64,000 bases of DNA from an uncultured Actinomycetes bacterium (GTDB lineage: Bacteria > Actinomycetota > Thermoleophilia > Gaiellales > Gaiellaceae). Within the stretch, counting starts at the first letter, position 1. Every line of letters starts with the position of its first letter. The notes under the pieces were generated by a model that made no database searches, was not told the DNA's origin, and saw nothing but the letters and a program-made list of their open reading frames with translations. The stretch spans positions 141,050 to 205,049 of the forward strand of contig CAVZJU010000003.1 in NCBI GenBank assembly GCA_963775695.1. Direction: 5' to 3'. The translations under genes and the position numbers were made by a program. Below are positions 5,511 to 22,498 of the stretch, in pieces.

Positions 5511-5588
5511 GGCGGCGGAGGAGTAAACGGGTTCCCGCGGCCGAGAACGGCCGAACGTCCTGGCCGGCACGTACGATCGCCGGGTCTC

Positions 5589-5635
5589 GGCGATGAGGCC
5601 CGCCGCCAACCGCCCGTGAGGCTGATGGCTTCTAC
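5589..5635 (+). promoter_or_regulatory. fluoride riboswitch (crcB motif), copy 1
   Basis: GGCGATGAGGCCCGCCGCCAACCGCCCGTGAGGCTGATGGCTTCTAC. Contains P1 (GGCG/CGCC), the AACCGCC block and GGCTGATGGCTTCTAC, with pseudoknot GAGGCC:GGCTTC. Closely resembles the Thermotoga petrophila crystallised aptamer as I recall it (GGCGAUGAGGCCCGCCCAAACUGCCCUGAAAAGGGCUGAUGGCCUCUAC). Confidence 0.85.
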
Positions 5636-5651
5636 GAACCAGGAGGTGCCT

Positions 5652-5888
5652 GTGATGCCGGGACGGGTTCGTGAGCCGAGGTACGACGTATCCCTCGAAC
5701 GCAAGATCGCCTGGGGAGCCGCGACGTTTGTCGCCGTCTCCGTCGTCGGGCTCCGGCTGGAGCCTGGTCTGCGCCTCGTGTGGATAGTGGCGCTGGTCTT
5801 CGGCGCGGGCGCGATCGGCACGATCGTGGGCGGCCGACTCGGCCGACCCACGATTCGGGGGCGGCGGTTGCGGCGCGGCTCGCGCTGA
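5652..5888 (+). CDS. small 2-TM membrane protein (unknown function)
   Basis: AGGAGG at 5641-5646, then GTG 5652 / ATG 5655. Product MPGRVREPRYDVSLERKIAWGAATFVAVSVVGLRLEPGLRLVWIVALVFGAGAIGTIVGG... First ORF after riboswitch 1. Confidence 0.5.
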   Translation: MMPGRVREPRYDVSLERKIAWGAATFVAVSVVGLRLEPGLRLVWIVALVFGAGAIGTIVGGRLGRPTIRGRRLRRGSR

Positions 5889-5898
5889 GCGCGTTTCG

Positions 5899-6363
5899 AT
5901 GAGTCTGCAGATCGAGATTCCTGGCAGGCCACCGCTCTCCCTGGACCATGTCGTCCTCGACGTCAACGGCACGCTCACCGATCGTGGGCGTCTCCTGGAC
6001 GGCGTCGGCGTTGCAGTCGAGCGGCTTCGGAGTCACGTCGGCGTCCTGCTCGTCTCCGCCGACACCTTCGGAACGCTGGAGCAGATCGGCGAGGATCTCG
6101 GCGTCGAGACGCGAACCGTTCGCGGTGGCGTGGACAAACGGCGGCTGGTGGAGGAGTTCGGCCCGGAACGCACGGCGGTGATCGGCAACGGGACGAACGA
6201 CGGTCCGGCGCTTGCGGCGGCGGCCGTCGGCTTGGCAGTGCTCGGACCCGAAGGGACGAGCGGAGATGCCGTGCGTGCCGCGGACGTTCTCTGCCGGTCG
6301 GTGGTGGAGGCAGTCGAGCTCCTTCTCGATCCGAACGCTCTGGCCGCCACCCTTCGGCCCTGA
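5899..6363 (+). CDS. HAD-superfamily protein, soluble P-type-ATPase-like (COG4087-like)
   Basis: LDVNGTLT (DKTGT-like phosphorylation motif) and GNGTNDGPAL (GDGxNDxPAL hinge-like). 154 aa, no TM segment. Confidence 0.8.
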   Translation: MSLQIEIPGRPPLSLDHVVLDVNGTLTDRGRLLDGVGVAVERLRSHVGVLLVSADTFGTLEQIGEDLGVETRTVRGGVDKRRLVEEFGPERTAVIGNGTNDGPALAAAAVGLAVLGPEGTSGDAVRAADVLCRSVVEAVELLLDPNALAATLRP

Positions 6364-6505: not shown

Positions 6506-7768
6506 TCAGACGTCGCGATCCGGATCTGATGGAGCCCTGCCCGTCCTTTCGTCCCGGGACACCGGATTGACTGCCCCGCCGGAGAGCACCGAAACCGCCA
6601 TCCATCCGGCTGCGTAGAAGAAGGCCGCAGTCGGGGAGACCAGAGTCCACAGCAGACCGACCGCCGCCGACGAGCCGAAGTCGCCGAACGACTGCACCCC
6701 CCCGAGCACTCCGAAGCCGCTCCCTCGCAGTCGGTCCGGGAGGAGTCGCGCGACGAGCGCCGACTCGGCGGTCTCGGCGAGCCCGATCCCGCCGCCTGCG
6801 AGGAAGAACGGCACGACCAGAAACGGCCACGACTCGAGTGGCAGGGCGAACAGCGTGTACGCAACGACGTAGAGGAGGCCGCCCGTTGCGAACACGATCC
6901 TGGGCCCGACGCGGTCGAGCCAGTGGCCTCCTCCGTAGGCGGCGAACGTGGCGACCAGGTTGTGGCCGGCGTAGATCAGGACCGCGATCGAGGTCGCGGC
7001 GGTGAGGGAGCGCTCTCCGTGGTGGAGGAGCGTCGTCGCCCGGAGGATCAGGAGAGTCGTCGCCATGTTGCCGAGCTCGAAGGCGGAGATGGGCAGCAGC
7101 GGGCGCATCAGACCGGCTTCGCGGAGACCCGAGAAGTCGAAGCGGGCGCGGCGCGGGACAGCGTGGTGGGCGCGCCGCGCCTCGGCCGCTGCCACCGTGA
7201 TCGCCGCCGCCGCGAAGAACCCCGGAACGGCGGAGAGGTAGAGCGTCGGTCGGATCCCGATCCAGGCCACGAGCCCGGCGGCCAGGAGCGGACCGGCGAC
7301 GGCACCGAGATTGTCCCCGGCCCGCTCGAGGCCGAAGGCCCGCCCGTAGGTGGACGGCGAGGCGAGTGAGGCGAGCATCGCGTCGCGGGCCGGCGAGCGC
7401 ACACCTCGGGCCAGCCACGCGCCTGCGCGGAGGAGGCCGACCTGCCAGACCGTGCTCGCGAGTCCGAGGGCTCCGGTGGCTGCCGCGGTGACGACGTAGC
7501 CGCCTGTGGCCAGCCGCAGTCGGCGCGACTCGTCGTTCGCGAGCGGGCCGCTGATGAGCTTCGCGACCCCCGTGAGACCGTCGCTGATCCCTTCGATCAG
7601 CCCCAGGGCGCCCGCGGAGGAGCGGAGGACCACGGTCACGAAGCTCGGCAGCACCGAGGTCGCGATCTCGTGGCCGAAGTCGCTGAAGAAGCTCGCGACG
7701 CCGATCCCGGCGACGCCGCGGGTCAGCCACGAGCGGCGACCCTCGGCGGTCGTCTCGGTCGTCGTCAT
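6506..7768 (-). CDS. MFS transporter
   Basis: ATG at 7768 gives MTTTETTAEGRRSWLTRGVAGIGVASFFSDFGHEIATSVLPSFV... About 12 TM. Lies 25 nt downstream of the MutS-like pair on the same strand. Confidence 0.85.
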   Translation of the reverse strand: MTTTETTAEGRRSWLTRGVAGIGVASFFSDFGHEIATSVLPSFVTVVLRSSAGALGLIEGISDGLTGVAKLISGPLANDESRRLRLATGGYVVTAAATGALGLASTVWQVGLLRAGAWLARGVRSPARDAMLASLASPSTYGRAFGLERAGDNLGAVAGPLLAAGLVAWIGIRPTLYLSAVPGFFAAAAITVAAAEARRAHHAVPRRARFDFSGLREAGLMRPLLPISAFELGNMATTLLILRATTLLHHGERSLTAATSIAVLIYAGHNLVATFAAYGGGHWLDRVGPRIVFATGGLLYVVAYTLFALPLESWPFLVVPFFLAGGGIGLAETAESALVARLLPDRLRGSGFGVLGGVQSFGDFGSSAAVGLLWTLVSPTAAFFYAAGWMAVSVLSGGAVNPVSRDERTGRAPSDPDRDV

Positions 7769-7793: not shown

Positions 7794-9320
7794 TCAGCGG
7801 GCCGTCCGTGCCTCTGCGGCGTTCGACTCGATTCCGAAGACCCTGCGGTAGGAGTCCTCGCCGTAGCTCGTCGGGAGCGGCTCGCCCTTGACGATACGGA
7901 ATGTCCTTCGGCCGCCGCTCCCGCGTTCGGCACGCAGGAACAGGGTGGTGTCGAGGCGCTGCGCGTGCAGGGTGTGCGCAAGGTCGTAGAGGTGGGTGAC
8001 GAAGAAGACCTTCACCCCGGAGTCGAGCATCGCGCGGATCACCTGGCGGGCGATCTCGGAGCCTTCCCGCTCGTTGGTCGCGGCGAACGACTCGTTGCAG
8101 AGCAAGAGGCAGCCCGGGGTGATCTCATCGGCGATCGCGCTCATCCTGGCGAGCTCCTCGTCGAGCTTCCCGCTCTCCATCGATTCGTCCTCCTCGCGCT
8201 TGTAATGGGTGAAGACGCCGCTGACGACGCCGGCCCGGAGGAATGCAGCGGGGGCGAACAGCCCGCACTGCATCATCAGCTGCGCGATGCCCGTGCTCCG
8301 CAGGAACGTCGACTTGCCGCCCTGGTTCGCGCCCGTGATCATCACGAGCGACCTGCCGTCCGCGTCGACGTCGTTTCCGACCACGCGTGGATCGAGGTGC
8401 AACGAGAGCGCCGCGTCGTACAGGTTCTCGGCGCTGAAAGCAGTGGCATTCCGGTCGACCGGTTCGGGGAAGCAGATCGGCTCGCCCTTCTCCGTCAGCC
8501 TCGCGTGCAGGTTCAGCGCCCCGAGGTAGAAGGCGATCTCGGCCCGCAGGACGGTGAAGAAGCTGACGATGTGGTCGGTCGACTGGCCCACGGCGTTGGC
8601 GACCAGGTTGGTGCCCTTGCCGCGCAGGTCGTCGAGCGCCTTGAAACCCGCCTCGTCCCGCGGCGGGATCGTGAAGCTGCGGCTCGGCGGCCCCTGCCCG
8701 GGGATGCGCTCGAGCCAGCCTCGCCGGCGGGGACGGCGCAGAACGTGCCCCACGCCCCTGTTGGCCCTTCCCAGACGCGCGCTCATGAGCTCTCCGCGGT
8801 CGAACTTCAGCTCCTTCAGGTAGCGGCGGAGAACGCCGAGGTACTCGTCGTCGAGCTCGGCCCGGAGCATGCCGAAGAACCGCTCGAACGCGTCGGAACG
8901 GAAGCTCGGCGCTTCCTCGTCGGCGAGCTTACGCAGGCGCTCGAGGACGTCGACGAGCGCCTGCAGCACCTGCACCGAGCTGTGCAGGATCATCCCCGGC
9001 GACGCGTGCCTGAGGCCGAAGAACAGGCTTGCCTTCCGCGGCGCGTTGACGGCCTCGACGGCCAGGTCGTAGATCGCCCTGACGGTCGCTTCGTGGGCCA
9101 GGCAGTCGGCCAGGACCTGTTGCCGGTACCGGATCTCTTCCCGCGTTCGCAGGTTCGCGAGCAGACCCTTGCCGGCGATCCCGCGCAGGAAATCGTCGCC
9201 CGCGGCCATCGCCTCGACCAGGGTCTCCAGCTCGAGGTCCTGGATCAGCGCGTCGGCGTTGGCCGGTGGCTCGCGCTCGACGTCGAAGTCGCGGTCGGCG
9301 TGCATGAGGAAGACCCTCAT
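7794..9320 (-). CDS. MutS-domain-V ATPase (MutS-related, no mismatch-binding domain), paralog B
   Basis: ATG 9320 overlaps the upstream stop (ATGA). Walker A GANQGGKST. Walker-B region LLLCNESFAATNEREG (NE instead of DE). Confidence 0.85.
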   Translation of the reverse strand: MRVFLMHADRDFDVEREPPANADALIQDLELETLVEAMAAGDDFLRGIAGKGLLANLRTREEIRYRQQVLADCLAHEATVRAIYDLAVEAVNAPRKASLFFGLRHASPGMILHSSVQVLQALVDVLERLRKLADEEAPSFRSDAFERFFGMLRAELDDEYLGVLRRYLKELKFDRGELMSARLGRANRGVGHVLRRPRRRGWLERIPGQGPPSRSFTIPPRDEAGFKALDDLRGKGTNLVANAVGQSTDHIVSFFTVLRAEIAFYLGALNLHARLTEKGEPICFPEPVDRNATAFSAENLYDAALSLHLDPRVVGNDVDADGRSLVMITGANQGGKSTFLRSTGIAQLMMQCGLFAPAAFLRAGVVSGVFTHYKREEDESMESGKLDEELARMSAIADEITPGCLLLCNESFAATNEREGSEIARQVIRAMLDSGVKVFFVTHLYDLAHTLHAQRLDTTLFLRAERGSGGRRTFRIVKGEPLPTSYGEDSYRRVFGIESNAAEARTAR

Positions 9321-10870
9321 GACGCGACCCGCTCCCGCAGCCGTTCGTACGTGAGACCGTACTTCTCGGCGATCGCCCAGGCGTAGGCGCGTCCGTCGGC
9401 CGGCCGGCGGACGAGCTTGAAGGTCCGAAGGGCGGGATTCCCCGGAACGACGGTGCTGACCATGCTGACCGTCGCATCGCTGAGCGACGCGAGCTCGTCC
9501 ACGAAGGTGACGTAGACACCGAGCAGGTCCAGGTCGAGCAATGCCCTCAGCACCTCGGTCCCGATGAAGAGCGCGTCGCTCAGCGTCGTCGACCCGAAGC
9601 TCTCGTTCATGACGACCACGCTCTCCGGGGTCGCCTGCTCGAGGATCTCGTGGACGCGGACGAGCTCGTCGTCGAGCTTGCCGCGGAGCGTCTCGATGTC
9701 CTCCTCGCGCTCGAAGTGGGTGAAGATGCGGTCGGGCAGGAAGAGCCGTGCCGCACTCCCGGGGACGGGGAGGCCGAGACTGGCCAGATGGTGGAGCTGT
9801 CCGAACATGCGGGCGAAGGTCGTCTTGCCCCCGTTGTTCGGCCCGGTGACGACGATGCACCGTTCCGTCCCCCGAAGCTCGAGGTCGTTGCAGACCACCG
9901 TTCCCCGCTCGGAGACGAGCTTGAGCGCCAGGGCGAGGTCGAAGGTCTCCGACGCGGTGGTGTCCTTCGAGCGTGCCGAGACGTGCGGGAAGCAGAATCG
10001 CAGGCCGACCCGCTCGAGCGGCTCGATCAGCTCGAGATACGCGACGTAGAACTGAATCTCGCGGTCGAAGCGGACGATCGCCGGCTCCAGGAAGTCCGCG
10101 TGGCGGCTGCAGAAGGCGTCGAGGGCGCCGAACGGGTCCGGGTTCAGCTGCGCGACCAGGGCCAGGATCTGCCCTTCGACGTGGCTCATGTGCGGCCACT
10201 CGCGCAGCTCGAGGAGGTAGCTCTTCGCGGCCCCCTGCTTGAACCGGGCAAATGTCTGCTCGACCTCCGCGCTGTAGTCCGGTTCGCCCGCATACCCGGT
10301 GACGGTGACGCGGGGCCCGTTGATCTGGACGGCGTAGACGACCTCGCCGAGAGCCTCCTCGACCGTACGCCCCTCGGTCTCGAGCGAGGCAAAGGCGTCC
10401 GAGGCCACGTAGCTCTCGAGACAGGCGGCGAGGGACCGGAGGCCGCGGGATGTGACGTCGAGCGAGGAGAGCTCGTCGGCGAGGGTGCGGACGCTTGCGC
10501 AGTAGGTGCCGGCGGCGTCCAGGAACCAGCGCTCCCTCTCGAAGTGGTACCGCCGGTCGCCCGCCTGCGCCAGGTACGTCCGTGTCGTCCGCATCCGATC
10601 GGCGAACCGGCGCACCGAGGCCATCACCTGGTCGTTGCGCAGGTCGCGGACGACCTCGTGCCGGTAGCGGACCGTCTCCACGTCCCGTTGCGCTGCCTGG
10701 AAGAACGGCTCGAGCTCGTACTCCTCGCGCCCGGCGGTCAGCCCCGCCAGCACCTGGTCGAGGTTCAGGTCGGCGAAGGAGTCCGGCTCGGCGGTCGCCT
10801 CGCCAGCTGGCCGCCCCGGAAAGAGGACTGTTCGGAACTTCCCAGCTTCCCGCCCGTTGCGATCCGCCAT
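9317..10870 (-). CDS. MutS-domain-V ATPase (MutS-related), paralog A
   Basis: 517 aa. Walker A GPNNGGKTT. Walker-B region VVVMNESFGSTT. Start codon is 25 nt downstream of riboswitch copy 2. Confidence 0.85.
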   Translation of the reverse strand: MADRNGREAGKFRTVLFPGRPAGEATAEPDSFADLNLDQVLAGLTAGREEYELEPFFQAAQRDVETVRYRHEVVRDLRNDQVMASVRRFADRMRTTRTYLAQAGDRRYHFERERWFLDAAGTYCASVRTLADELSSLDVTSRGLRSLAACLESYVASDAFASLETEGRTVEEALGEVVYAVQINGPRVTVTGYAGEPDYSAEVEQTFARFKQGAAKSYLLELREWPHMSHVEGQILALVAQLNPDPFGALDAFCSRHADFLEPAIVRFDREIQFYVAYLELIEPLERVGLRFCFPHVSARSKDTTASETFDLALALKLVSERGTVVCNDLELRGTERCIVVTGPNNGGKTTFARMFGQLHHLASLGLPVPGSAARLFLPDRIFTHFEREEDIETLRGKLDDELVRVHEILEQATPESVVVMNESFGSTTLSDALFIGTEVLRALLDLDLLGVYVTFVDELASLSDATVSMVSTVVPGNPALRTFKLVRRPADGRAYAWAIAEKYGLTYERLRERVAS

Positions 10871-10894
10871 CCGCTTCCACCACCAGTAGGTTCG

Positions 10895-10941
10895 GTAGAA
10901 GCCATCAGCCGCTCTGGCGGTTTCAGGCGGGCTTCATCGCC
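10895..10941 (-). promoter_or_regulatory. fluoride riboswitch (crcB motif), copy 2
   Basis: Minus-strand sense: GGCGATGAAGCCCGCCTGAAACCGCCAGAGCGGCTGATGGCTTCTAC. Pseudoknot GAAGCC:GGCTTC is fully Watson-Crick. Confidence 0.85.
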
Positions 10942-11015
10942 GCTGACATCCTACCGCTGGCGGCCGTTCCCACGCCGGTCGCGGCCGGTTCTGCGTGCGG
11001 CTGGATTTCGTTGCA

Positions 11016-11064
11016 GCGCGATGAGGCTCCGCGCCCAACCGCCGCTCCGGCTGATGGCCTCTAC
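11016..11064 (+). promoter_or_regulatory. fluoride riboswitch (crcB motif), copy 3
   Basis: GCGCGATGAGGCTCCGCGCCCAACCGCCGCTCCGGCTGATGGCCTCTAC. Pseudoknot GAGGC:GCCTC. Divergent from copy 2. Confidence 0.8.
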
Positions 11065-11090
11065 CGACTGGCCCTCGAGGGGGAGTGGTG

Positions 11091-11488: not shown

Positions 11489-12001
11489 TCAGCCGCCGAG
11501 ACGCGCTGCGTACCGAGCCTGTGCCTGCTCGATCTCTCGCTCCGCTGCCTCGCGACCGGCCCAGCCCTCGATCGCCGTCAACCGCTCGGGCTCGAGCTCC
11601 TTGTAGACGGAGAAGAAATGTGCGATTTCGTCGCGGACGCGCGCGGAGACGTCGTCGAGCTCGTAGACGTCCCGCCACTCGGCATCGTGCAGCGGGACGC
11701 AGAGCACCTTGTCGTCGACGCCGGATTCGTCCCGCATCTGGAAGATGCCGATCGGCCTGACGTCGATTCTGCAGCCGGGGAACGTCGGCTCGCTGACCAG
11801 CACGAGCGCGTCGAGCTGCGCATCCATCTCGCGCTGACGCTGGCCGTGGTCGACCAGCGTGTCCTCCAGGAAGCCGTAGTCGGCCGGGAACACGACCGAC
11901 GAGAACAGGTGCCGATCGAGCCTGAAGACGCCCCTGCCCACATCCCACTCGTACTTGTTCTGGCTCCCCTTCGGCACTTCGACGAAGCAGACGAGCTCCA
12001 C
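11489..12001 (-). CDS. ppa: inorganic pyrophosphatase, family I (atypical metal-site region)
   Basis: VEVPKGSQNKYEWD, FPADYGFLEDTL, IRPIGIFQMRDESGVDDKVLCVP, IAHFFSVYKELE. An insertion and substitutions occur at the DxDxxD segment (see findings). Confidence 0.9.
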   Translation of the reverse strand: MELVCFVEVPKGSQNKYEWDVGRGVFRLDRHLFSSVVFPADYGFLEDTLVDHGQRQREMDAQLDALVLVSEPTFPGCRIDVRPIGIFQMRDESGVDDKVLCVPLHDAEWRDVYELDDVSARVRDEIAHFFSVYKELEPERLTAIEGWAGREAAEREIEQAQARYAARLGG

Positions 12002-12032: not shown

Positions 12033-12470
12033 TCAATCCGCCGGCTCCTCCGATACGACCAGAACGGGTACCTCCGCCGAGGCGATCAGGCGCTCGGCCA
12101 CGCCGTGGAGGAGGAAGCGTCCGGGGCGGCGGCTGCGGTGATGGCCGACGATCACCAGGTCGAACCCGTGCTCACGCGCATAGTCGAGCAGGTCCTCCAC
12201 CGGATGGTCGCCTTCGATGATCTCCTGGCGGACGTCGACCCCGGCACGGTCGGCGCGGTCGAGGAAGTGGTCGAAGGTCTCCCTCAGGTACCTGGTCGCC
12301 GCATCGACCGATTCGGCGCGGTCGGCCTCGGTCTCCGCGTGGGCGGGGGAATGCGCGACGGACGCGGCGACGATGTCCGCCTGGTAGCGGCGGGCCAGAT
12401 CCAGCGCGAGGTCGAATGCACGCGCCGCGGGGCGTGAGCCGTCCCAGGCGATGAGGATTTCCTGGAACAT
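12033..12470 (-). CDS. universal stress protein (UspA family)
   Basis: ATG 12470 overlaps the upstream stop by 1 nt (TGATG). MFQEILIAWDGSRPAARAFDLALDLARRY...DLVIVGHHRSRRPGRFLLHGVAERLIASAEVPVLVV. Confidence 0.85.
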   Translation of the reverse strand: MFQEILIAWDGSRPAARAFDLALDLARRYQADIVAASVAHSPAHAETEADRAESVDAATRYLRETFDHFLDRADRAGVDVRQEIIEGDHPVEDLLDYAREHGFDLVIVGHHRSRRPGRFLLHGVAERLIASAEVPVLVVSEEPAD

Positions 12471-14440
12471 CAGTGACGGAGGGCTGGGATCATGGCGAGT
12501 GCTCCTAGCAGGACGAGAAGGACATACAGCAGGTAGAAGCCGAGCCGGCCCGACTGCAACCGGCGGGTGAAGCCGGAGAGCCGAAGGCCGGCGGCGACGA
12601 GCGGCTCGTACAGGTAGTGCTCGAAGGCCGGCACCACGCGCGTGGTGAGCATGAAGCGCTCCGGCTGCCTCCCGCCCCCCTCGGCGTGGATCGTCCTGCG
12701 AAATCCGTAGACACCGGCCAGGACGACGCGGATCGGATTGGTGTAGGCCTCTGGCGTGTATTGGACGACCGCGATGTCGGGTGCGGCGCCGGAGAGCCAC
12801 ACCGGCGCACGACGCACCGACGGCTTCAGGAGCACGCGGACGAGAAGGGCGGCCGCGATCAGGAACGTCGGGATCGCCAGCGCCAGCCACGTCGGCGAGA
12901 GGACCGAGAAGTTTCCGTAGACGGGGCCGAGGACCAGCGGGTGGGTGACGGCCGTGCCGGCCGGGTCGAAGCCGAGGACGCCGCTCAGCCCTTCGCCGAG
13001 CCAGCGGATCTCCCACGGCGCGGCCGCCCCGAGGAACAGCAGGGTGACGCCGAACGCGACGAAGCCGATGCCTCCCCGGCGGGCCTCGGGGGCCGGCTCC
13101 TGCGGGTGACGTGGACGCCCGAGGAAAATTCCACCGAAGAGGCGGGCGAAGGCGAGCAGCGCGATGCCGGCGGTGAGCGCGACCATCGCGCCACCGAGCG
13201 CCATGAACAGCTGCGCGTCCGAGTCCTTCAGACGAAACCCTTGCAGGAGCGCCTCCAGGGTGAACCACTCGCTGACGAATCCGCCGAATGGAGGCATCGC
13301 CGCAAGTGTGAGGACCGCGAGTCCGAAGCCCAGAGCCGTCCCCGGAAGCTTTGCCGCGAGGCCTCCGAGCGGCGCGGTCGTCCGCTCCCCGGTGGCCTCG
13401 GCGACGCTTTCCGCGCCCAGGAACGCCCCCGCCTTCGCGATTCCGTGCATGATCACGTGCAGGGTCGCGGCGAGGAGTCCCGCCGCCGCCAGCTCCGGCT
13501 CGTTGCTGCCCTGCCCGATGAGGGCGACTCCGAAGCCGAGGAGCGCGATGCCCCCGTGCTCGACGCTCGAGAAGCCGAGGAACCGCTTCACGTCGTCCTG
13601 CACCACCGCGTAGAGGATCCCGGCGATGGCACCCAGACCGCCCAGCACGATCAGCAGCTCTCCCCACCAGAGCGGCGCAGGTGCGAGCGTGCCGTAGACG
13701 AGGCGCCAGAGCCCGTAGAAGCCGCCGTTGAAGGCGACGGCGATCGTCGCCGCCGTCGCAGCGGGAGCAGCCTGGTACAGACCCGGGAGCGGCACCTGGA
13801 AGGGAAGCAACCCGATCTTGGTGCCGAAGCCGACGAGCAGGAGGACGAACGCGACGTCGCGGGTCGTGCCGAGGCCGGCCGCGGCGTGCTGCCAGGCGCT
13901 GAACTCGAAGCTTCCGGTCTGCCCGTAGAGCAGCCCGAAGGCGGCGAGGATCGCAGCACCGCCGATCTTGTTCACCGCCGAGGCGAAGTAGCCGGCCGCG
14001 AGCGCAGCCGGACGGTCGCGATCCAGGCTGCCGAGGATGTAGAGGCAGACGCTGAGGGTCTCCCAGGCGAGGAGGAAGACGAACCCCTGATTGGCGCCGA
14101 GGACGGCGGCGAGCGCAAGGATGACGAGGCTGTGGAGGGTCGCGGGCGACCGGCGAGTCGGACGCTCGGCGAGAGCGACGGACACTGCAGCGGCCGTCCC
14201 GCCGACCAGCGCGAGGAAGATGCCGCTGAGCCGGTCGGCGACGAGCGCGGAGGGGCCGAATCCGAGCCACGTCCCGAGACCCACGCGAGCTTCCGACCAC
14301 CCCCCCGCGCTGACGACTCCGACTGCGCAGAGGAGCGCGGATGCGACGGCCGCCGCACCCAGGGCCGGGCGAGGCCGGAGCAGGGCGAGTCCGGCTGCCC
14401 CGCAGAGCACGAGGAGGGCTGCTGCGAAGACGCCGTTCAC
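12470..14440 (-). CDS. HyfB/HycC-like (NuoL-like) antiporter-type membrane subunit
   Basis: 656-aa polytopic protein with proton-antiporter-like blocks (GFGTKIGLLPFQVPLPGLY, FLGFSSVEHGG). Confidence 0.85.
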   Translation of the reverse strand: MNGVFAAALLVLCGAAGLALLRPRPALGAAAVASALLCAVGVVSAGGWSEARVGLGTWLGFGPSALVADRLSGIFLALVGGTAAAVSVALAERPTRRSPATLHSLVILALAAVLGANQGFVFLLAWETLSVCLYILGSLDRDRPAALAAGYFASAVNKIGGAAILAAFGLLYGQTGSFEFSAWQHAAAGLGTTRDVAFVLLLVGFGTKIGLLPFQVPLPGLYQAAPAATAATIAVAFNGGFYGLWRLVYGTLAPAPLWWGELLIVLGGLGAIAGILYAVVQDDVKRFLGFSSVEHGGIALLGFGVALIGQGSNEPELAAAGLLAATLHVIMHGIAKAGAFLGAESVAEATGERTTAPLGGLAAKLPGTALGFGLAVLTLAAMPPFGGFVSEWFTLEALLQGFRLKDSDAQLFMALGGAMVALTAGIALLAFARLFGGIFLGRPRHPQEPAPEARRGGIGFVAFGVTLLFLGAAAPWEIRWLGEGLSGVLGFDPAGTAVTHPLVLGPVYGNFSVLSPTWLALAIPTFLIAAALLVRVLLKPSVRRAPVWLSGAAPDIAVVQYTPEAYTNPIRVVLAGVYGFRRTIHAEGGGRQPERFMLTTRVVPAFEHYLYEPLVAAGLRLSGFTRRLQSGRLGFYLLYVLLVLLGALAMIPALRH

Positions 14441-15207
14441 GCTGCTGCCTCCCGGGTGACGACGCCGGACGCCAGAAGCAGTCCGTGCAGGACCGCGATC
14501 GGGCTCGGCGGAGATCCCGGGACGTAGACGTCGACCGGGAGGACCCTGTCGACGCCGCCGGCCACTTCACCTGTCTGGGCTGCGAGACCGCCGGAGCAGG
14601 CGTCGGTACCGGCGGCGACGACCGCCTTGGGGTGCGGCATGACCTCGAATGCGCGAAGGAGGGGTGCCTCCATCGAGGGGGTGACTCCACCGGTGACGAG
14701 GAGGATGTCGGCGTGCCTCGGAGACAGCGTGAAGAAGAGGCCGAGGCGCTGCATGTCGTAGAAGGGGTTCGTCAGCGCGGCGATCTCCCACTCCTCGGCT
14801 CCGTCCGAGCCGGCGTCGACGTGCCTGACGTGGATCGAGCGGCGGAGCGTGCGCGACTGCTGTCCGAGGCTGCGACGCGGCTCGCCGGTCGCGCCTTCGG
14901 GATCGTTCACGACGAGCGCGCCGCGCCGGCGTGCTGCCGTCTCGTACTCGGGCTCGAATTCGAAGCGGCTCGGATCGGCGGCGACGCAGGCGCCGCAGAG
15001 GATGCAGCGGCCGCGGTCGACGGAGACGCGGCCGCCGCTGCTCCTGATCGCTCCGGTCGGGCAGACCGCTTCCAGACCTGCCGGCGCCGGCGTGTCGCTC
15101 CTGAGACCGACCCGGCCGCGAAAGCCGGGAGGGGCCGCCTCAGGACGCCGCGGGTATCGGGTCGTGACGATGCCGCGATGCAGGCCGCGGGGGATCCACT
15201 CCAGCAT
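14437..15207 (-). CDS. fusion of a HycF-like ferredoxin remnant and a HycG/NuoB-like small subunit; most FeS cysteines missing
   Basis: N-terminal part retains VCPTG...CILCGACVAADP. C-terminal part is NuoB-like (LSPRHADILLVTGGVT...PKAVVAAGTDACSGG...LPVDVYVPGSPPSP). It has GSDGAEEWE and PGSPP where the canonical motifs are GSCxxCE and PGCPP. Confidence 0.75.
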   Translation of the reverse strand: MLEWIPRGLHRGIVTTRYPRRPEAAPPGFRGRVGLRSDTPAPAGLEAVCPTGAIRSSGGRVSVDRGRCILCGACVAADPSRFEFEPEYETAARRRGALVVNDPEGATGEPRRSLGQQSRTLRRSIHVRHVDAGSDGAEEWEIAALTNPFYDMQRLGLFFTLSPRHADILLVTGGVTPSMEAPLLRAFEVMPHPKAVVAAGTDACSGGLAAQTGEVAGGVDRVLPVDVYVPGSPPSPIAVLHGLLLASGVVTREAAA

Positions 15208-16700
15208 CAGCGATCCGCTCCTGCCGGCGAGAGCCCGAAGCTGTGCTCGATGAACGAGAAGTCGGTGAGCACGTCGCCGCGGAAGCTGGCTGCGAAGAGC
15301 GGCCAGTTACGAAGCGACGGCGAGGAGATCCGCACCGTTCGCAGCCGACCCTCGTCCACCTCGACCCAGTAGACGAGCTCGCCCATCGGCGCCTCGGCCC
15401 AGCCGAACGCCGCTCCACTCTCGGCGGGAAGCTCGACCGTCAGCTCGCCGTCGTCCTTCTCGTCGCGCTCGAGCGACTGCCGGATCAGGTGGACACTCAC
15501 GCGGATCTCGTCGAGGCGGACCTCGAGACGGGCCATCGCGTCACACTCCTCGGCCGTGACCATCCGGAAGCCCAACCTCCGGTACGCGCCGTAGGGGCGC
15601 TCGAAGCGCGCATCGGTCGGGATCCCCGATCCGCGCGCGACGGGCCCGACGCCCGCATGGGCGTCGACCGTGGCGGGTTCGAGTGTGCCGCTTCCGATCA
15701 GACGGTCGGTGAACGAGGGTGTCCTCAGCAGGAGCCGTCGATCCCGGCGCACGTCGCGCTCGAGCTCGCTGAGAAACCGTCGTATCTCGCGGATCGGAAG
15801 CTGGGGCCCTCCGGCGACACCGCCGGTGACGATGACGCCTCGTCCGAAGCGACTGCCGCAGAGCCGCGCCCGCAGACGCATGACCTGCTCCTTGAGGATC
15901 CCGAATCGGGCGACCGCCACGGACAGGGCGGCGTCCTCTGCGAGCCGGGTGGCAACGTCGAGATGGTTCGCGATCCGCTCGAGCTCCGCGTGTACGACCC
16001 GCCAAAGCTGCGCCTTCGGCGGCGGTTCGACGCCGAGCGCACGCTCGACCGCGTGCGAGAAGGCGCACGCATGCGCGACCGACGCAATGCCGGCTACGCG
16101 CTCGGCGACCGTCGTCCCGTCCCCGGGGGTGCGACCGTTGAAGCGGCTCTCGAGCCCCCGCCGCTTGAAATACGGCCGGACCTCCAGTGCCAGGACGTCT
16201 TCGCCGCCCGTCTCGATCACGTACTGGATCGACTCGAAGACTCCGGAACGGATCGGCCCGTAGGGGATGACGAACGTCCCCTCGCCCTCCACCCGGCGGC
16301 GAAGGTTGTCCGGATCGGGGCGGACGGCCGGGGCCAGGTCCGGATGCCCGAGAGGAATGAGACCGTGGAGGTCGTGCAACTCCCGCTCCGGGAAGCGAAA
16401 TGCCGGTGACATCAGTGCAAGTGACGGAAACGACGACGTCCGGTCGATCGACGCCAGGAGGGCGACCAGCTGTCCGCGCACCGCGAAGGCGACGGCGAGG
16501 GACCGCTCCGGCTCGTCCGTGACGAACATCGCGACGAGCCGGGCGCGACGTTCGAGCAGGAGCGCCGCCGCCCGGTCGATCACTCCGATCGGCAGTCGTA
16601 GGCGCTGCTCGCCGAGCGGAGCCGGTTCGCCGACTGCGCGAAAGCGACCGTCGAGGAACTCGTGTGCGTCGCCTGCGAGCATTGCGTTCTCGGCGGTCAT
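15207..16700 (-). CDS. HycE/HyfG-like (NuoC-NuoD fusion type) 'large subunit' lacking both NiFe CxxC motifs
   Basis: ATG 16700 overlaps the upstream stop (ATGA). AERVAGIASVAHACAF replaces R-x-C-G-x-C-x-x-x-H. The C-terminus ...SFIEHSFGLSPAGADR replaces D-P-C-x-x-C-x-x-R. Only 3 isolated Cys in 497 aa. Confidence 0.85.
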   Translation of the reverse strand: MTAENAMLAGDAHEFLDGRFRAVGEPAPLGEQRLRLPIGVIDRAAALLLERRARLVAMFVTDEPERSLAVAFAVRGQLVALLASIDRTSSFPSLALMSPAFRFPERELHDLHGLIPLGHPDLAPAVRPDPDNLRRRVEGEGTFVIPYGPIRSGVFESIQYVIETGGEDVLALEVRPYFKRRGLESRFNGRTPGDGTTVAERVAGIASVAHACAFSHAVERALGVEPPPKAQLWRVVHAELERIANHLDVATRLAEDAALSVAVARFGILKEQVMRLRARLCGSRFGRGVIVTGGVAGGPQLPIREIRRFLSELERDVRRDRRLLLRTPSFTDRLIGSGTLEPATVDAHAGVGPVARGSGIPTDARFERPYGAYRRLGFRMVTAEECDAMARLEVRLDEIRVSVHLIRQSLERDEKDDGELTVELPAESGAAFGWAEAPMGELVYWVEVDEGRLRTVRISSPSLRNWPLFAASFRGDVLTDFSFIEHSFGLSPAGADR

Positions 16701-18160
16701 CGGGCGGCGAGCTGGTCGGCGGCGTGTCCGAGGAGCGTCGAGAGTCCGCTCGGAACGTGCAGGCCGAGGCCGACGACGACGACGAGGCAGGCTGCCATCC
16801 CGGCGACCATCGTCCAACTCGCCTCGCCGCGAGGGGCCCCGGGCGCTGCAGGCGAGAACACCATCCTGCCGGCGTGCCAGACGACCCCGAGGAACGCCAC
16901 GTTGACGAAGACGAGCAGCATCGTCACCCAGACGTACCCGGGGGTCGCGAAACCCCCGCTGACGATCTGGAACTCGCTTCGGAAGATGCCCGAGACGGGC
17001 AGACCGCTGAGCGCGAGGACTGCCACGAGAAACATCGGGCCGGAGACCGGCAGGGCTTGGGCCGCACCCTGCACGGAGTCGATCTCCTTGCTCCCGAAGC
17101 GTCTCAGGATCGAACCCGTGCCGAAGAAGGCCATCCCCTTCGCGGCGGCGTGGTTGAGCACGTGCAGGAGTGCGCCGGCGACCGCGATGCGCACGCCGAA
17201 GCCGATGCCGACCGCGATCACGCCCATGTGCTCGATCGTCGAGTAGGCGAGGAGCCGCTTGTAGTTCTCCTGCCGGAGAACGAAGAGCGCCGCCACGAGC
17301 AGCGATGCGGTTCCGAACACGAGCAGGACGTGGCGCGGAAAGTCCTGTCCGACTGCGAGGGCGGTCACCTGGTAGAAGCGGAGGATGGCGTAGAGGGCAT
17401 TCGCGAGCAGCGCCCCGGAGAGGAGCGCCGACACGGGGCTCGGTGCCTCGCTGTGCGCGTCCGGGAGCCAGGCGTGGAGCGGGGCGAAGCCCGCCTTGGT
17501 GCCGAATCCGACCACCGCCAGGAGGAACGCGATCTCGACCTCGGTCGCCGGCAGCTGCCCGCCGACCGAGAGATATCGCGTGAACCGCGGGATGTACGCC
17601 TGGCCGAGTGCGTTCGTTCCCGAGGCGTACAGGATGATCACCGCGAGGAGGGCGATGCCGAGCCCCACGGACGCGATCAGGACGTACTTCCACGCCGCCT
17701 CGAGCGCCGCGTCCGTCCGTTCCAGCGCGACCAGGAGAACCGAGACGATCGTGGTCAGCTCGACCGCCACCCACAGCGTGGCGAAGTCGTTCATCAGTGG
17801 GACGAGCAGCATCGTCCAGCCGAAGAGGTTGAGGTAGCCGAAGTACTTGCGGGCGAACGAGTCACGGCCGTGGTGATGCGCTCCCGCCCGCAGGAATCCG
17901 ATCGAGAAGACGCTCCCCGCCGCATACAGGAAGCTGCTTGCGAGAAGGAACACCGCTCCAAGGGAATCGAGGCGGAGCCACCCGCTGGCGGTCGTCAGAG
18001 GCACGTCATTGCGAACAGAGACAGCGGCGCTGAGCGCGAGTGCAAAGCAGGCACCCCCCGCTGCGGCGGTCGCGAGCTCGGCCGCACGCGGTGAGCCGAG
18101 AAAGGCAACCGCTGAGCCGGCCAGCGGTACGAGGACCAGGGCGATGAGGACGGCGCTCAT
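16697..18160 (-). CDS. HyfF/HyfD-like (NuoM/N-like) antiporter-type membrane subunit
   Basis: 487 aa. GFGTKAGFAPLHAWLPDAHSEAPSPVSALLSG and LAYSTIEHMG are typical of NuoM/N/MrpD-type subunits. Confidence 0.85.
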   Translation of the reverse strand: MSAVLIALVLVPLAGSAVAFLGSPRAAELATAAAGGACFALALSAAVSVRNDVPLTTASGWLRLDSLGAVFLLASSFLYAAGSVFSIGFLRAGAHHHGRDSFARKYFGYLNLFGWTMLLVPLMNDFATLWVAVELTTIVSVLLVALERTDAALEAAWKYVLIASVGLGIALLAVIILYASGTNALGQAYIPRFTRYLSVGGQLPATEVEIAFLLAVVGFGTKAGFAPLHAWLPDAHSEAPSPVSALLSGALLANALYAILRFYQVTALAVGQDFPRHVLLVFGTASLLVAALFVLRQENYKRLLAYSTIEHMGVIAVGIGFGVRIAVAGALLHVLNHAAAKGMAFFGTGSILRRFGSKEIDSVQGAAQALPVSGPMFLVAVLALSGLPVSGIFRSEFQIVSGGFATPGYVWVTMLLVFVNVAFLGVVWHAGRMVFSPAAPGAPRGEASWTMVAGMAACLVVVVGLGLHVPSGLSTLLGHAADQLAAR

Positions 18161-18161
18161 C

Positions 18162-19790
18162 TCAGCCGCGAAGCCGGTTCAGCACGTCAGTCGTGACCGA
18201 GGTGCGCTGGACGCTGAAGTACTGGACGAGGAGGACGAAGACCAGGAGCCCGATGAAGACGTCGAAGAGCAGGAGCAGGGCGAGGATCAGGGGAAGGCTG
18301 GGGGCGATGACCAGGGCCGCGAGGGTGACCCCGTTCTCGAGCACGAGGAAGCCGATCACCTGCGACGGCGCGTAGGGCCGGAGGATCATCAGGAGCAGTG
18401 CGACCAGCACGATCGCAACCGCAATGCCGAGCGCCTCCAGCGGGAGCGCTCCCTGGTGATCGAGATGGAGCCGTGAGAGGGCGATGAAGCTGAAGCTGGA
18501 GAGGACGATGCCGAGCAGCGCTGCGCTCGGCACCCGCACCGTCGACGGGACGCGCATGGACACGTCCAGCCTCGTAATGGTCGCCCCGATCGCGAGCGGG
18601 ATGGCGATCGTCTTGAAGGCGATCGTGATCGCCCCGATCACCCACAGATCGGCGTGGTGGAGCTTCGCCGCCGCTGCGAACGCGACGATTGCGACAGCGG
18701 CGGAACCGAGGCCGTACAGCCGCAGCTGCCCCCGGATGTCCTGCGTGCGTAGGAGTGCGAACTCGAGCAACAGGACGGTGACTGCGACGACGCTCGCGAT
18801 GCCGCCGAACACGGTGAGGTGGACGGTCCCGTACTGTCGCTGGAGCACGAACGTGATCACGGCCAGGACGGCGAAGAGAAAGCCGGCCACGGTGAACTCG
18901 GGGATCTTGTAAAGGCGCAGCTTCGCGAACGACGACTCGATGACGACGATCGCGGCTCCGACGACGAGCGCCTTCCCGAACAGAATCGCGATCGCCAGGA
19001 GGACGCTGTCGAGCCGCCGGTCCCCCGCCAGGCCCCACGGCGCGGTGAGGACGTTGGCGAGGATGACGAAGAGGATCATCTGCTTCATCGACGAGCCCCA
19101 CTTGAGCAGGGCGTAGCCGGGGCCGGAGTGCTCGAGCGTCCGGCCTTCCTCGATCATCCCGAACTCCAGGGTGGCCCCGTGGTTCTCCAGTGGGATCCGC
19201 CCGGTCTCGGAGATGACGACCATGAAGAACGCTGCCGCGGCGAGAAGATGAGCGGGCCGGAAGACCTCGACCGCGGACGACTTGAGCGTCGCGGCGAAGG
19301 CGTAGGGGAGGTCGGTGCCCGTGATGAGCGCGACCGAGAAGATGACGAAGATGATCGTCGGCTCGCCGAGCGCGCCGAACGTGCGGAGCCGGCTCGAGCC
19401 GAGCTGGGTATACGGGCTGCCGCTGTCGATAGCGGCCAGCGAGACGGCATAGCTTGCGAGCCCGAGCACGAAGCCGCCGCCGAGGATGTCCCCCATGTAG
19501 GCCGGTTGGGGCGGGAAGTCCGTCAGCACCGGGATCAGGAGCGGGACAACGCAGTAGCAGGCGAAGGCGACGTAGGGAGCGATCCGGAACACCGGCCCTG
19601 CCCCGTCCGGAAGGACCGTCTCCTTCCGGAAGAACTTGGCGATGTCGTGGTAGGGCTGGAGCAGCCTGGGCCCGTGCCGTCCCTGCACCAGGGCCTCGGC
19701 CCGGGCGATGACACCGGTGACCAGCGGCGAGACGAGCAGGATCGTCCCCAGCTGGAAAGCCTGGATCAGTCCGTCGCTCAGCTGCGGCAT
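18162..19790 (-). CDS. HycD/HyfC-like (NuoH-like) subunit fused to a HyfE-like (NuoK-like) membrane module
   Basis: 542 aa. N-terminal ~300 aa: LVSPLVTGVIARAEALVQGRHGPRLLQPYHDIAKFFRKE...EFGMIEEGRTLEHSGPGYALLKW (HycD-like). C-terminal ~220 aa are multi-TM and HyfE-like. First gene after riboswitch copy 4. Confidence 0.8.
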   Translation of the reverse strand: MPQLSDGLIQAFQLGTILLVSPLVTGVIARAEALVQGRHGPRLLQPYHDIAKFFRKETVLPDGAGPVFRIAPYVAFACYCVVPLLIPVLTDFPPQPAYMGDILGGGFVLGLASYAVSLAAIDSGSPYTQLGSSRLRTFGALGEPTIIFVIFSVALITGTDLPYAFAATLKSSAVEVFRPAHLLAAAAFFMVVISETGRIPLENHGATLEFGMIEEGRTLEHSGPGYALLKWGSSMKQMILFVILANVLTAPWGLAGDRRLDSVLLAIAILFGKALVVGAAIVVIESSFAKLRLYKIPEFTVAGFLFAVLAVITFVLQRQYGTVHLTVFGGIASVVAVTVLLLEFALLRTQDIRGQLRLYGLGSAAVAIVAFAAAAKLHHADLWVIGAITIAFKTIAIPLAIGATITRLDVSMRVPSTVRVPSAALLGIVLSSFSFIALSRLHLDHQGALPLEALGIAVAIVLVALLLMILRPYAPSQVIGFLVLENGVTLAALVIAPSLPLILALLLLFDVFIGLLVFVLLVQYFSVQRTSVTTDVLNRLRG

Positions 19791-19823
19791 CCGTCCCGAC
19801 GTCTCCTTGCCCTCGACTACGAG

Positions 19824-19891
19824 CTAGAAGCCATCAGCCGTCGGAACGGCGGTTCGGAGCGGGGGCCGCTCCCGCCAGAGCTTCATCTGGC
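19824..19891 (-). promoter_or_regulatory. fluoride riboswitch (crcB motif), copy 4, with an extra inserted hairpin
   Basis: Minus-strand sense: GCCAGATGAAGCTCTGGC-GGGAGCGGCCCCCGCTCC-GAACCGCCGTTCCGACGGCTGATGGCTTCTAG. Same core blocks. An 18-nt GC hairpin is inserted between P1 and the AACCGCC block. Confidence 0.8.
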
Positions 19892-20034
19892 GTCGCCAGC
19901 GTAGCGAATCGCCGACGCGGTCCGGACGGTACCGGACACGCAGGACGCAGACCTGGAACCCGAACTCCAGGCGCGCCGCCACCGGCCGAGACGGTTGGAC
20001 CGGCCCTGTTCGGCTAGGCTGATTCCACACCGGT

Positions 20035-20080
20035 CGCGATGAGGCCCGCGCTCAACCGCCTTCGGGCTGATGGCTTCTGT
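20035..20080 (+). promoter_or_regulatory. fluoride riboswitch (crcB motif), copy 5
   Basis: CGCGATGAGGCCCGCGCTCAACCGCCTTCGGGCTGATGGCTTCTGT. Divergent from copy 4. Followed by GGGAGG and ATG 20115. Confidence 0.8.
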
Positions 20081-20114
20081 GTCTTCTTCGGGTTCGCTCC
20101 AGGGAGGCGGACGT

Positions 20115-20540
20115 ATGAGTCATCTCGCGCCGGATTCAGCCGGAAGTGCCCAGGTCGAGATCGACGTCGACCCGGCTGGGCTCGACGAGCTTCGCGGCCG
20201 GGCAGGCGACGCAGCACCGACCGCGGACGAGGACCTGCTCCGATACCTCGTGTACCTGGGCGCCGGCTACCTGGAGACCGAGGCAGTCTCTGCGGCTGCC
20301 CCGAGCGTCCACGAGGCCTATGCGCGCCTCGACCGCATGCATGCTGCCGTGGAGGGGCACTCGTCGGTCCTGAGTTTCCACTACGGCGAGTCGGCGCGAG
20401 AGTTCGCCGAAGAGGAGAGGGCACACGCGGCTCACGAGCGAAGCGCCGGAGCCTACGAGGGGCTTGTCGAGAAGCTCGAGGCGGAGATCGCAGCCCGGGA
20501 AAAGCGAGTCGTCAGGCTGAAACGAGCGCTCGAGCAATGA
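20115..20540 (+). CDS. hypothetical protein (acidic, C-terminal coiled-coil-like), first gene after riboswitch 5
   Basis: ATG 20115 is preceded by GGGAGGCGG. Product MSHLAPDSAGSAQVEIDVDPAGLDELRG...LVEKLEAEIAAREKRVVRLKRALEQ. High GC3. No family recognised. Confidence 0.6.
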   Translation: MSHLAPDSAGSAQVEIDVDPAGLDELRGRAGDAAPTADEDLLRYLVYLGAGYLETEAVSAAAPSVHEAYARLDRMHAAVEGHSSVLSFHYGESAREFAEEERAHAAHERSAGAYEGLVEKLEAEIAAREKRVVRLKRALEQ

Positions 20541-21067
20541 GGACATCGCTTCTGACGGCCGATCTCGACGAGTTCGAGCGGACCGGGGCCGACGTCGGAT
20601 CCGCGTTTGCCCGTGGCGCTCGCTCCCTCGGCTGCCGGCAACTCCACGAGCGCCTGCTTGAACCCTTCAGCACGGAGGCGGGGCTGACCGAGTTGGTCGA
20701 TCTCTATGCCGAGGCCTACGCCCGGATGCATCTGCTGCGGTTCGGCTACATGAGCAAGGCCGAGGCGTATGCCGAATCGAAGGAACGGTACGACGCCGTC
20801 GACGACGTGCTCTTCGACCTACGGCGGCACGTCGTCCCTGCTCTTCGAACCCGTCTGGCGGAGGTCAGGCAGCGTGAGGCGCAGCTCGTGGCGGAGGCCG
20901 AGGCGCGCGGCATCCCGACGGCTGAGATAGGCCCGATCGTCCCCGCGGATCGAGCGCAGGTGACGTCGGTTCGCCCAGGCGAAGGCCCTCCACAGCGCCG
21001 GACGCTTACACCCCTCGCTCCACGGCCTACGCGGCTGCAACGGTTGCGGCAACTGTTGCGTCGATGA
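20537..21067 (+). CDS. hypothetical protein
   Basis: ATG 20537 overlaps the upstream stop (ATGA). Product MRTSLLTADLDEFERTGADVGSAFARG...YMSKAEAYAESKERYDAVDDVLFDLRRHVVPALRTRLAEVRQREAQL. The C-terminal Arg/Pro-rich tail is uncertain. No family recognised. Confidence 0.55.
   Translation: MRTSLLTADLDEFERTGADVGSAFARGARSLGCRQLHERLLEPFSTEAGLTELVDLYAEAYARMHLLRFGYMSKAEAYAESKERYDAVDDVLFDLRRHVVPALRTRLAEVRQREAQLVAEAEARGIPTAEIGPIVPADRAQVTSVRPGEGPPQRRTLTPLAPRPTRLQRLRQLLRR

Positions 21068-22498
<1,431 letters not shown>

Follow-up and report, generated by a model that had tools for sequence, protein, structure and literature searches.

A predicted fluoride-responsive mutS4A-mutS4B operon with Asn-Glu Walker B motifs in a multi-riboswitch island of a Gaiellaceae genome

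The window analyzed here is a stretch of 64,000 nucleotides from an uncultured Actinomycetes bacterium of the family Gaiellaceae (GenBank assembly GCA_963775695.1, contig CAVZJU010000003.1, positions 141,050 to 205,049 of the forward strand), with a G+C content of about 70%. It contains two overlapping genes, here called A and B, that encode MutS-related proteins and lie directly behind a fluoride riboswitch aptamer. On balance, we favor the reading that this locus is a fluoride-inducible mutS4A-mutS4B operon with a major facilitator superfamily (MFS) transporter gene as its third member, that it is part of an island with several riboswitches, and that its product is an asymmetric A/B clamp. 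Regulation of the operon by fluoride through sequestration of the Shine-Dalgarno (SD) sequence is well supported by the leader sequences; a clamp on DNA or branched DNA is the likeliest activity of the product, and this part is speculative. The elements of the locus are as follows.

9317-10870, minus strand: mutS4A-type gene (A), 517 aa; its ATG is the first start codon in frame
7794-9320, minus strand: mutS4B-type gene (B), a paralog of A, 508 aa, with the same architecture
9317-9320, minus strand: ATGA stop/start overlap of A and B, read directly from the sequence
10889-10950, minus strand: fluoride riboswitch aptamer (RF01734)
10873-10902, minus strand: alternative (OFF) hairpin of the expression platform, from the minimum free energy (MFE) fold of the leader
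6509-7768, minus strand: MFS transporter gene, 25 nt downstream of B

Assignment of the gene pair to MutS4A and MutS4B

On the minus strand (...GTCGCGTCATGAGGGTC...), the ATG of B (9320-9318) overlaps the TGA of A (9319-9317) by 4 nt, exactly as a first-pass annotation, made by a model from the letters alone, had described together with the lengths of the two proteins. MutS_V is the sole Pfam match in A (residues 339-471, E 4e-16) and in B (residues 327-486, E 1.5e-18), and Pfam models for MutS_I, II, III, IV and Smr do not match either protein even at E<=10. Overall, NCBIfam scores of the two proteins are 5- to 10-fold below the cut-offs: 55-60 bits versus 642 for mutS1 (TIGR01070), 47-62 bits versus 400 for mutS2 (TIGR01069), and 37-59 bits versus 300 for KamC, a MutS-like family annotated as lysine 5,6-aminomutase reactivase. 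We rejected a canonical MutS1 or MutS2 identity, which fails on both domain content and equivalog scores, and also a KamC identity, for which the equivalog score is too low and no kam genes are found nearby. PADLOC models for anti-phage defense gave no significant match for the pair.

The AlphaFold2 (AF2) model of A, built on 53 diverse homologs, has a mean predicted local distance difference test score of 89.6 and a predicted template modeling score of 0.86. Residues 30-290 form long helices with one small beta-hairpin (179-192), itself followed by a less confident stretch, and residues 296-517 form the P-loop domain. The top match of this model in a Foldseek search against the PDB is the T. 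thermophilus MutS2 core (7vuk/7vuf; E 1e-17, template modeling score ~0.6, ~525 aligned columns); it is followed by E. coli MutS, human MutSbeta and the complex of B. subtilis MutS2 with collided ribosomes (7qv3). Because the alignment extends over the whole chain, we read A as the MutS lever/clamp (domains III-IV) joined to the ATPase (domain V), without domains I, II or Smr. The lengths of 517 and 508 aa, together with the alignment to the MutS2 core, leave no room for MutS-I, MutS-II or Smr. In BLASTP, the ATPase regions of A and B are 34% identical, and the profiles of the two families align end to end (hhalign probability 100%, E 5.6e-45, positions 23-501 with 16-490); therefore, B is built like A. 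The first-pass annotation had seen only a clamp/ATPase region without domain I or Smr, and had proposed a domain search as a check. That search returned MutS_V only and revealed no canonical MutS1 or MutS2 architecture, and the AF2 model, which aligns to the MutS2 core, bears the description out.

The MutS2 core (7vuf/7vuk; 7qv3 for MutS2, also called RqcU) is thus the best whole-protein structural match, with the same lever/clamp and ATPase and without domains I and II. However, MutS2 is a homodimer that has a D-E Walker B, the STF and TH motifs, a C-terminal Smr nuclease and a KOW domain, whereas the window proteins come as a two-gene pair without Smr and with N-E in the Walker B. Another relative in plan is the eukaryotic MSH4-MSH5, in which two MutS paralogs without the mismatch-binding domain I form a heterodimer that acts as an ATP-driven clamp on branched DNA and promotes recombination. 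In contrast to the window pair, MSH4-MSH5 keeps the connector domain II and canonical ATPase motifs and is not known to be stress-regulated.

There is little doubt in our minds that the pair is MutS4A/MutS4B. According to the accessible part of the paper by Lin, Nei and Ma (2007), who defined this subfamily, its members consist of the MutSac region only, their function was unstudied, and they are known from Thermoplasma, Ferroplasma and a small number of distant bacteria, Thermoanaerobacter tengcongensis among them (PMC2190696). A tandem arrangement with overlapping stop and start codons is a published trait of MutS4A/MutS4B (PMC2190696; PMC5742357, as far as the available text of both goes). 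The window proteins have MutS_V near the C-terminus, lack MutS-I, MutS-II and Smr, and are encoded by adjacent overlapping paralogs. Like MutS4A and MutS4B, each contains only the ATPase-type region and belongs to a family with a patchy spread over bacteria and archaea that is prone to horizontal transfer; we found no structural difference between the two pairs. In Thermoanaerobacter, the genus of one founding MutS4 species, the orthologs of A and B are 52% and 51% identical to the window proteins and have the same layout; these orthologs are those of locus L010.

Consequently, the novelty implied by the first-pass annotation does not stand. Both the gene pair and its association with the riboswitch are already published, and the window pair belongs to a known arrangement: in addition to the MutS4 papers (PMC2190696; PMC5742357), Weinberg et al. 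(2010) reported crcB-motif RNAs upstream of genes "involved in DNA repair (mutS)" (PMC2864571); the text "mutS" is absent from the first 200 supplementary files of that paper. What we did not see in the open literature that we read is that the riboswitch-associated "mutS" is MutS4A/MutS4B, that the linkage is near-obligate, that N-E is invariant, that the pair has a T-F/T-H asymmetry, and that a platform sequestering the SD sequence is conserved. The available text of the two MutS4 papers does not mention fluoride or a riboswitch (PMC2190696; PMC5742357), nor did we notice in it the N-E Walker B or the T-F/T-H asymmetry, for which no dedicated search was made.

The MFS gene (Pfam MFS_1, E 2e-29) probably belongs to the same riboswitch-controlled operon, as its third member. 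No terminator-like site was found between B and this gene. The window order, aptamer-A-B-MFS, is also found on a Rubrobacter radiotolerans plasmid, and a few other loci have MFS genes next to the pair.

The frame of B is open far upstream through A, giving a 1029-aa shadow ORF (7794-10883, minus strand). No entry of the protein collection equals the 508-aa sequence of B exactly, a hint that the start is called differently there. We considered a 1026-aa A-B fusion protein (P0143) as Rosetta-stone evidence for a heterodimer and rejected it, since its middle is a frameshifted read-through in the B frame; database A-B "fusion" proteins of this kind in these high-G+C genomes are frameshift read-throughs and not real fusions.

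Fluoride aptamer and expression platform

The aptamer upstream of A scores 50.2 bits in cmscan (gathering score 34, E 6e-11), and the match is full length (model positions 1-64) with all conserved positions present. The first-pass annotation had recognized the fluoride riboswitch correctly; its span ended at 10941, whereas the Rfam match extends as far as 10950. Between the end of the conserved CUAC (10895) and the start of the ATG of A (10870) lie 24 nt, in agreement with the 25 nt given earlier. No terminator-like element was found in this 24-nt spacer.

In the MFE fold of the leader, the 3' pseudoknot strand of the aptamer, GCUUCUACC (10902-10894), pairs with GGUGGAAGC (10881-10873) in a helix of 9-10 bp. 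The GGUGGAAGC strand is the purine-rich SD tract, which stops 2 nt short of the ATG. In 30 orthologous leaders, the distance from the aptamer core to the start codon is 9-36 nt. We searched 24 leaders (23 orthologous leaders with a spacing of 20-36 nt and that of the window) for such a helix, comparing each sequence with its own shuffles. A contiguous SD-pairing helix of at least 9 bp is found in 18 of the 24, and its length was reached by at most 1% of the shuffles in 17 of these 18 leaders and by 3.5% in the remaining one (L029). Many of the leaders come from related Actinomycetota, so these are not independent events. Compensatory variants of the aptamer strand and the SD-side strand were seen, namely GCUCCUGUU with AACAGGAGC, CUCCUACUG with CGGUAGGAG, and GCCUCUACUC with GAGUAGAGGC. 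RNAalifold recovered just 5 pairs from a MAFFT alignment of the leaders, because divergent leaders are misaligned in it.

The conserved SD-sequestering hairpin supports a translational ON switch. Judged from these sequences, it is likely that fluoride turns the operon on at the level of translation. The translational gating proposed in the first-pass annotation is therefore plausible: there is no terminator, and the SD-pairing helix recurs with compensatory changes.

Conservation of the pair and its linkage to fluoride aptamers

The A family is large, with thousands of clusters at 90% identity and about 1,100 clusters at 50% identity (E<=1e-30), and its members are annotated as "DNA mismatch repair protein MutS" or "MutS-related protein." More than 596 relatives were found when one genome per GTDB species was scanned, and the best 80 loci (49-66% identity) among them were examined. 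The bacterial loci belong to Actinomycetota, Chloroflexota, Bacillota (Thermoanaerobacter), Alpha- and Deltaproteobacteria, Spirochaetes, Verrucomicrobia, Planctomycetes, Dormibacterota and Saccharimonadales, and the archaeal ones to Thaumarchaeota and Woesearchaeota. An ortholog of B directly follows A in all 80 loci, and the two genes overlap by 4 nt ([AGT]TGA) in 70 of 76.

With the Rfam model, 13 of the first 15 loci proved to have a fluoride aptamer shortly before A. These aptamers were used to build a covariance model, which identified a total of 145 aptamers in the 80 loci. A same-strand aptamer lies within 400 nt upstream of A in 52 loci and farther upstream in 20 more, which brings the total to 72 of 80 across more than 10 phyla; at least one aptamer is present in 73 loci. 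Where the aptamer is farther upstream, the genes ahead of A in the cases examined encode a dynamin-family GTPase (6 loci), MFS transporters, a universal stress protein (USP) or an antiporter. Loci linked to an aptamer include those of Thermoanaerobacter, Chloroflexota, Spirochaetes, Verrucomicrobia, Proteobacteria, Saccharimonadales and one Woesearchaeote.

Plasmids carry homologs as well: 45 such plasmids were found, of which 21 are conjugative. A Klebsiella IncFIB/HI1B plasmid has, in this order, an aptamer, genes for a cation:proton antiporter and a USP, MutS4A and MutS4B, and this stretch adjoins the crcB-gpmA-eno-usp-ppaC cluster characterized in E. cloacae FRM. The linkage of the pair to fluoride aptamers is near-obligate across phyla and on conjugative Enterobacteriaceae plasmids. 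The first-pass annotation had suggested looking at co-occurrence with RF01734, with a lack of linkage in other genomes as the outcome that would speak against it, and the linkage proved to be very strong.

Several of these loci have peculiarities of their own. The dynamin-family GTPase (~560-620 aa; Dynamin_N, sometimes DUF6062) stands between the fluoride aptamer and A in L044, L047, L048, L052, L078 and L019 and downstream of B in three loci; overall, it is in the same operon as the pair in about 9 of the 80 loci. It may be a functional partner of the MutS4 pair, and we know of no discussion of dynamin-like proteins within the fluoride regulon. In an Actinomycetes metagenome-assembled genome (L001, 7334-9087), a second fluoride aptamer (7334-7394) downstream of A-B is followed by another MutS_V protein of 526 aa, which suggests a tandem second copy of the module. 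In Rubrobacter radiotolerans plasmid 2 (L082, 6255-7890), the annotation splits the MutS4A ortholog into two overlapping "hypothetical protein" coding sequences, the result of either a frameshift or a sequencing error.

Active-site signature

The Walker A motifs are intact in both proteins, as had been noted from the sequence alone: GPNNGGKTT in A (343-351) and GANQGGKST in B (330-338). The Walker B motifs read VVVMNESF in A (418-425, N422-E423) and LLLCNESF in B (405-412, N409-E410), and HMMER alignments to solved MutS and MutS2 chains place this N-E exactly on the canonical D-E. The unusual Walker B is real and not a peculiarity of this genome. It reads hhhh-N-E-x-F-x-S-T in 150 of 150 A-type sequences, which represent 50%-identity clusters and are 42-61% identical to A, and hhL[FC]-N-E-S-F-A-[AS]-T-N in 74 of 74 aligned B orthologs.

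Other changes accompany it. Both families have G-K-[LF]-x-x-E-L at the place of the MutS "S-T-F-x-x-E" signature, while neither the catalytic Glu nor the Walker A Lys varies in either of them. The "T-H" switch motif of MutS is T-F in the A family (Phe in 79 of 79; T455-F456 in A) and is kept as T-H in the B family (74 of 74; T442-H443 in B); thus, the pair is a conserved asymmetric couple. Heterodimeric MutS proteins and ABC ATPases with one degenerate site provide a parallel for this asymmetry.

The same Asp-to-Asn change at the Walker B position was engineered in E. coli MutS as D693N. In the crystal of this mutant, the metal site is empty, and ATP binding is ~15-fold weaker (PMC2857095; PDB 3k0s). 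Its ATPase is steeply Mg2+-dependent, with a kcat of 18 versus 1.9 per min at high Mg2+ (PMC2857095). On the one hand, D693N is a repair-defective mutant; on the other hand, in MutS4 the Asn is the invariant natural state of both paralogs. By analogy, we infer that the MutS4 sites may hold Mg2+ weakly, so that nucleotide binding and hydrolysis would depend strongly on free Mg2+. The invariant N-E, as a natural equivalent of D693N, therefore leads to a concrete biochemical hypothesis. A further step, that the Asn is an adaptation to Mg-fluoride chemistry, is doubtful.

Proposed mechanism and alternative explanations

In the mechanism that we propose, the 3' strand of the aptamer pseudoknot would pair with the SD tract in the absence of fluoride and block initiation at the start codon of A. 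Binding of fluoride would lock this strand in the aptamer, free the SD tract and allow A to be translated. B would be translated through termination-reinitiation at the ATGA overlap, resulting in roughly 1:1 synthesis of A and B. The product would be an asymmetric A/B heterodimer on the core plan of MutS2 or MSH4-MSH5, with lever/clamp arms and two composite ATPase sites, and without mismatch-binding, connector or nuclease domains. Such a dimer could serve as an ATP-operated clamp on DNA or branched DNA, maintaining or remodeling the genome while fluoride poisons Mg-dependent phosphoryl-transfer enzymes, and, thanks to its weak Mg site, it may escape trapping as ADP-Mg-fluoride. DNA as the substrate is a tentative choice, suggested by the fold, by analogy with MSH4-MSH5 and MutS2, and by one recombination assay, in which the MutS4 operon raised homeologous recombination in M. 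smegmatis ~2.5-fold (Kim et al., 2017; accessible part of PMC5742357).

Several points weigh against the reading of the locus as a fluoride-inducible operon for an A/B clamp. The linkage counts cover the 80 closest relatives of more than 596 candidates and not the distant members of the family, and 7 of these 80 loci have no aptamer within 4 kb. The tie of MutS4 to fluoride tolerance is one of gene linkage and not of experiment. In E. cloacae FRM, a six-gene operon without MutS is enough for high fluoride resistance (PMC5533749). The M. smegmatis assay was small and, in the available text, was carried out without added fluoride and with the native upstream region, which would include the riboswitch (PMC5742357). 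The heterodimer, which we consider probable, is deduced from co-inheritance and translational coupling only, and ATPases of the MutS fold also act on ribosomes (MutS2, PDB 7qv3) and probably on enzymes (the KamC model).

The first-pass annotation had stated that the function of such pairs in fluoride stress was not established, and this appears to be correct. MutS is mentioned neither in a 2024 review of fluoride resistance nor in the paper on the E. cloacae fluoride operon (PMC5533749), and we found no functional link of crcB, fluoride and mismatch repair in the searchable literature. The papers on MutS4 evolution and recombination and those on fluoride, connected here through the riboswitch, do not cite each other as far as they are accessible. 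For the ways in which cells withstand fluoride, the regulons of fluoride riboswitches are the chief guide; their exporters and duplicated target enzymes are understood, whereas the MutS-like genes have been unexplained since 2010. With RF01734 upstream and with enolase, pyrophosphatase, USP, formate-hydrogenlyase-like, antiporter and HAD-like neighbors, the pair resembles other members of the fluoride (crcB-motif) regulon, but the members that have been characterized either act as exporters (CrcB, CLC-F) or duplicate fluoride-sensitive enzymes.

A bolder proposal is that MutS4A/MutS4B is a dedicated fluoride-stress machine and not a DNA-repair factor, and that the Asn in the Walker B, together with the Phe in A, evolved to give a low-affinity Mg2+ site. 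We regard it as unlikely. If it is true, the low-affinity site would escape or report Mg-fluoride poisoning, and the clamp would work on a stalled nucleoprotein or enzyme while ordinary P-loop NTPases are trapped; this would be a new functional class in the MutS superfamily and would account for the long-unassigned arm of the fluoride regulon.

The substrate could be the ribosome instead. When metal-fluoride (GDP-MgF3-type) trapping stalls ribosomes or translational GTPase complexes, MutS4A/MutS4B would then clamp them and split them, in the way that MutS2/RqcU acts on collided disomes; we see a rather small chance of this. The MutS2 core is the closest structural match, with the B. subtilis MutS2-disome structure 7qv3 among the top matches, and the dynamin-family proteins in the operon of the pair at about 9 of 80 loci are P-loop GTPases. 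Fluoride-metal complexes are classical transition-state mimics of NTPases, and the Foldseek matches of A include a MutS-ADP-BeF3 entry (1nne) that can be compared with such mimicry. However, the KOW and Smr domains of MutS2 take part in its binding to ribosomes; neither Smr nor any other extra domain was detected in A or B, and no ribosomal or ribosome-associated quality control genes were seen among the neighbors of the loci.

It is improbable that the pair is an ATP-driven reactivase or chaperone for fluoride-poisoned metalloenzymes (enolase-Mg-F-Pi, pyrophosphatase), in parallel to KamC. The KamC model matches B with an E-value of 3e-16, similar to those of the MutS1 and MutS2 models, and additional copies of enolase and pyrophosphatase, the classical targets of fluoride, surround the pair. 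Yet the similarity to KamC is limited to the ATPase domain, where it reaches 59 bits versus a cut-off of 300; the neighbors differ between loci, so no fixed client enzyme is evident, and long lever arms are typical of clamps around nucleic acid.

The pair might also be chiefly a recombination-promoting passenger of a mobile island, with fluoride control incidental to the structure of the island. Similar island content is described as horizontally acquired and pro-recombinogenic in M. yongonense (accessible part of PMC5742357), an IS481-type transposase flanks the island in the window, and the plasmid-borne homologs would fit as well. We give this little credence, since the aptamer lies directly upstream of the pair, which has its own SD-sequestering platform, in dozens of unrelated lineages; a dedicated aptamer and platform with such a spread indicates selection for fluoride control of these genes specifically.

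Finally, the N-E sites are hardly likely to be catalytically dead, with A and B as nucleotide-binding scaffolds or sensors, for although the Walker B Asp is lost and the STF signature replaced in both proteins and the switch His lost in A, both families retain the catalytic Glu and the Walker A Lys without exception, B keeps the His, and E. coli MutS D693N hydrolyzes ATP, at high Mg2+ faster than the wild type (PMC2857095).

The fluoride island in the window

Four aptamers in the window score above the Rfam threshold: the one upstream of A and three others. With one 21-bit candidate below the threshold, they lie within 15 kb and are arranged as two divergent pairs. The other features of this region are listed below.

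5580-5641, plus strand: fluoride aptamer above the Rfam threshold
5616-6363, plus strand: 90-codon ORF with hydrophobic stretches, then a 154-aa HAD-like hydrolase fragment-type protein, after aptamer 5580-5641
11008-11070, plus strand: fluoride aptamer above the Rfam threshold, 38 bits
11085-11210, plus strand: 41-codon ORF (MVMEVKVRAIVVCGNRLLV...LPGGRVKRWE), the sole ORF after aptamer 11008-11070
11489-12001, minus strand: inorganic pyrophosphatase gene (ppa)
12033-19790, minus strand: formate-hydrogenlyase (FHL)/complex-I-like operon with NADHdh, two Proton_antipo_M, a 49-kDa/NiFe-type subunit, and a 20-kDa plus Fer4 subunit
19818-19885, minus strand: sub-threshold aptamer candidate, 21 bits
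20026-20086, plus strand: fluoride aptamer above the Rfam threshold
20039-21067, plus strand: 342-aa ORF without a Pfam match, between aptamer 20026-20086 and the enolase gene
21098-22498, plus strand: enolase gene
22583-23554, plus strand: IS481-family transposase gene (rve, LZ_Tnp_IS481), at the edge of the island

The clustered aptamers mark a multi-operon fluoride island that comprises the HAD-like gene, MutS4AB-MFS, the FHL-like genes with USP and pyrophosphatase, and enolase. The FHL-like operon is followed by the genes for the USP and the inorganic pyrophosphatase, and the sole aptamer candidate upstream of it is the weak one at 19818-19885. The aptamer at 11008-11070 has no intact gene behind it before the convergent ppa; the 41-codon ORF begins like a Nudix hydrolase and then runs into stop codons, and Pfam gave no match for this fragment. 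This aptamer may be an orphan riboswitch ahead of a decayed gene. The listed start of the 342-aa ORF overlaps its aptamer, so the true start would be later, if the gene is real.

A similar island is known from M. yongonense, where MutS4A/MutS4B were found by Kim et al. (2017) in a horizontally acquired island with genes for enolase, NADH-dehydrogenase and hydrogenase (PMC5742357, accessible part); enolase and NADH-dehydrogenase/hydrogenase genes accompany the pair in the window as well. The IS481 transposase at the edge of the window island is consistent with the horizontal acquisition of the M. yongonense island and with the plasmid-borne location of such islands elsewhere.

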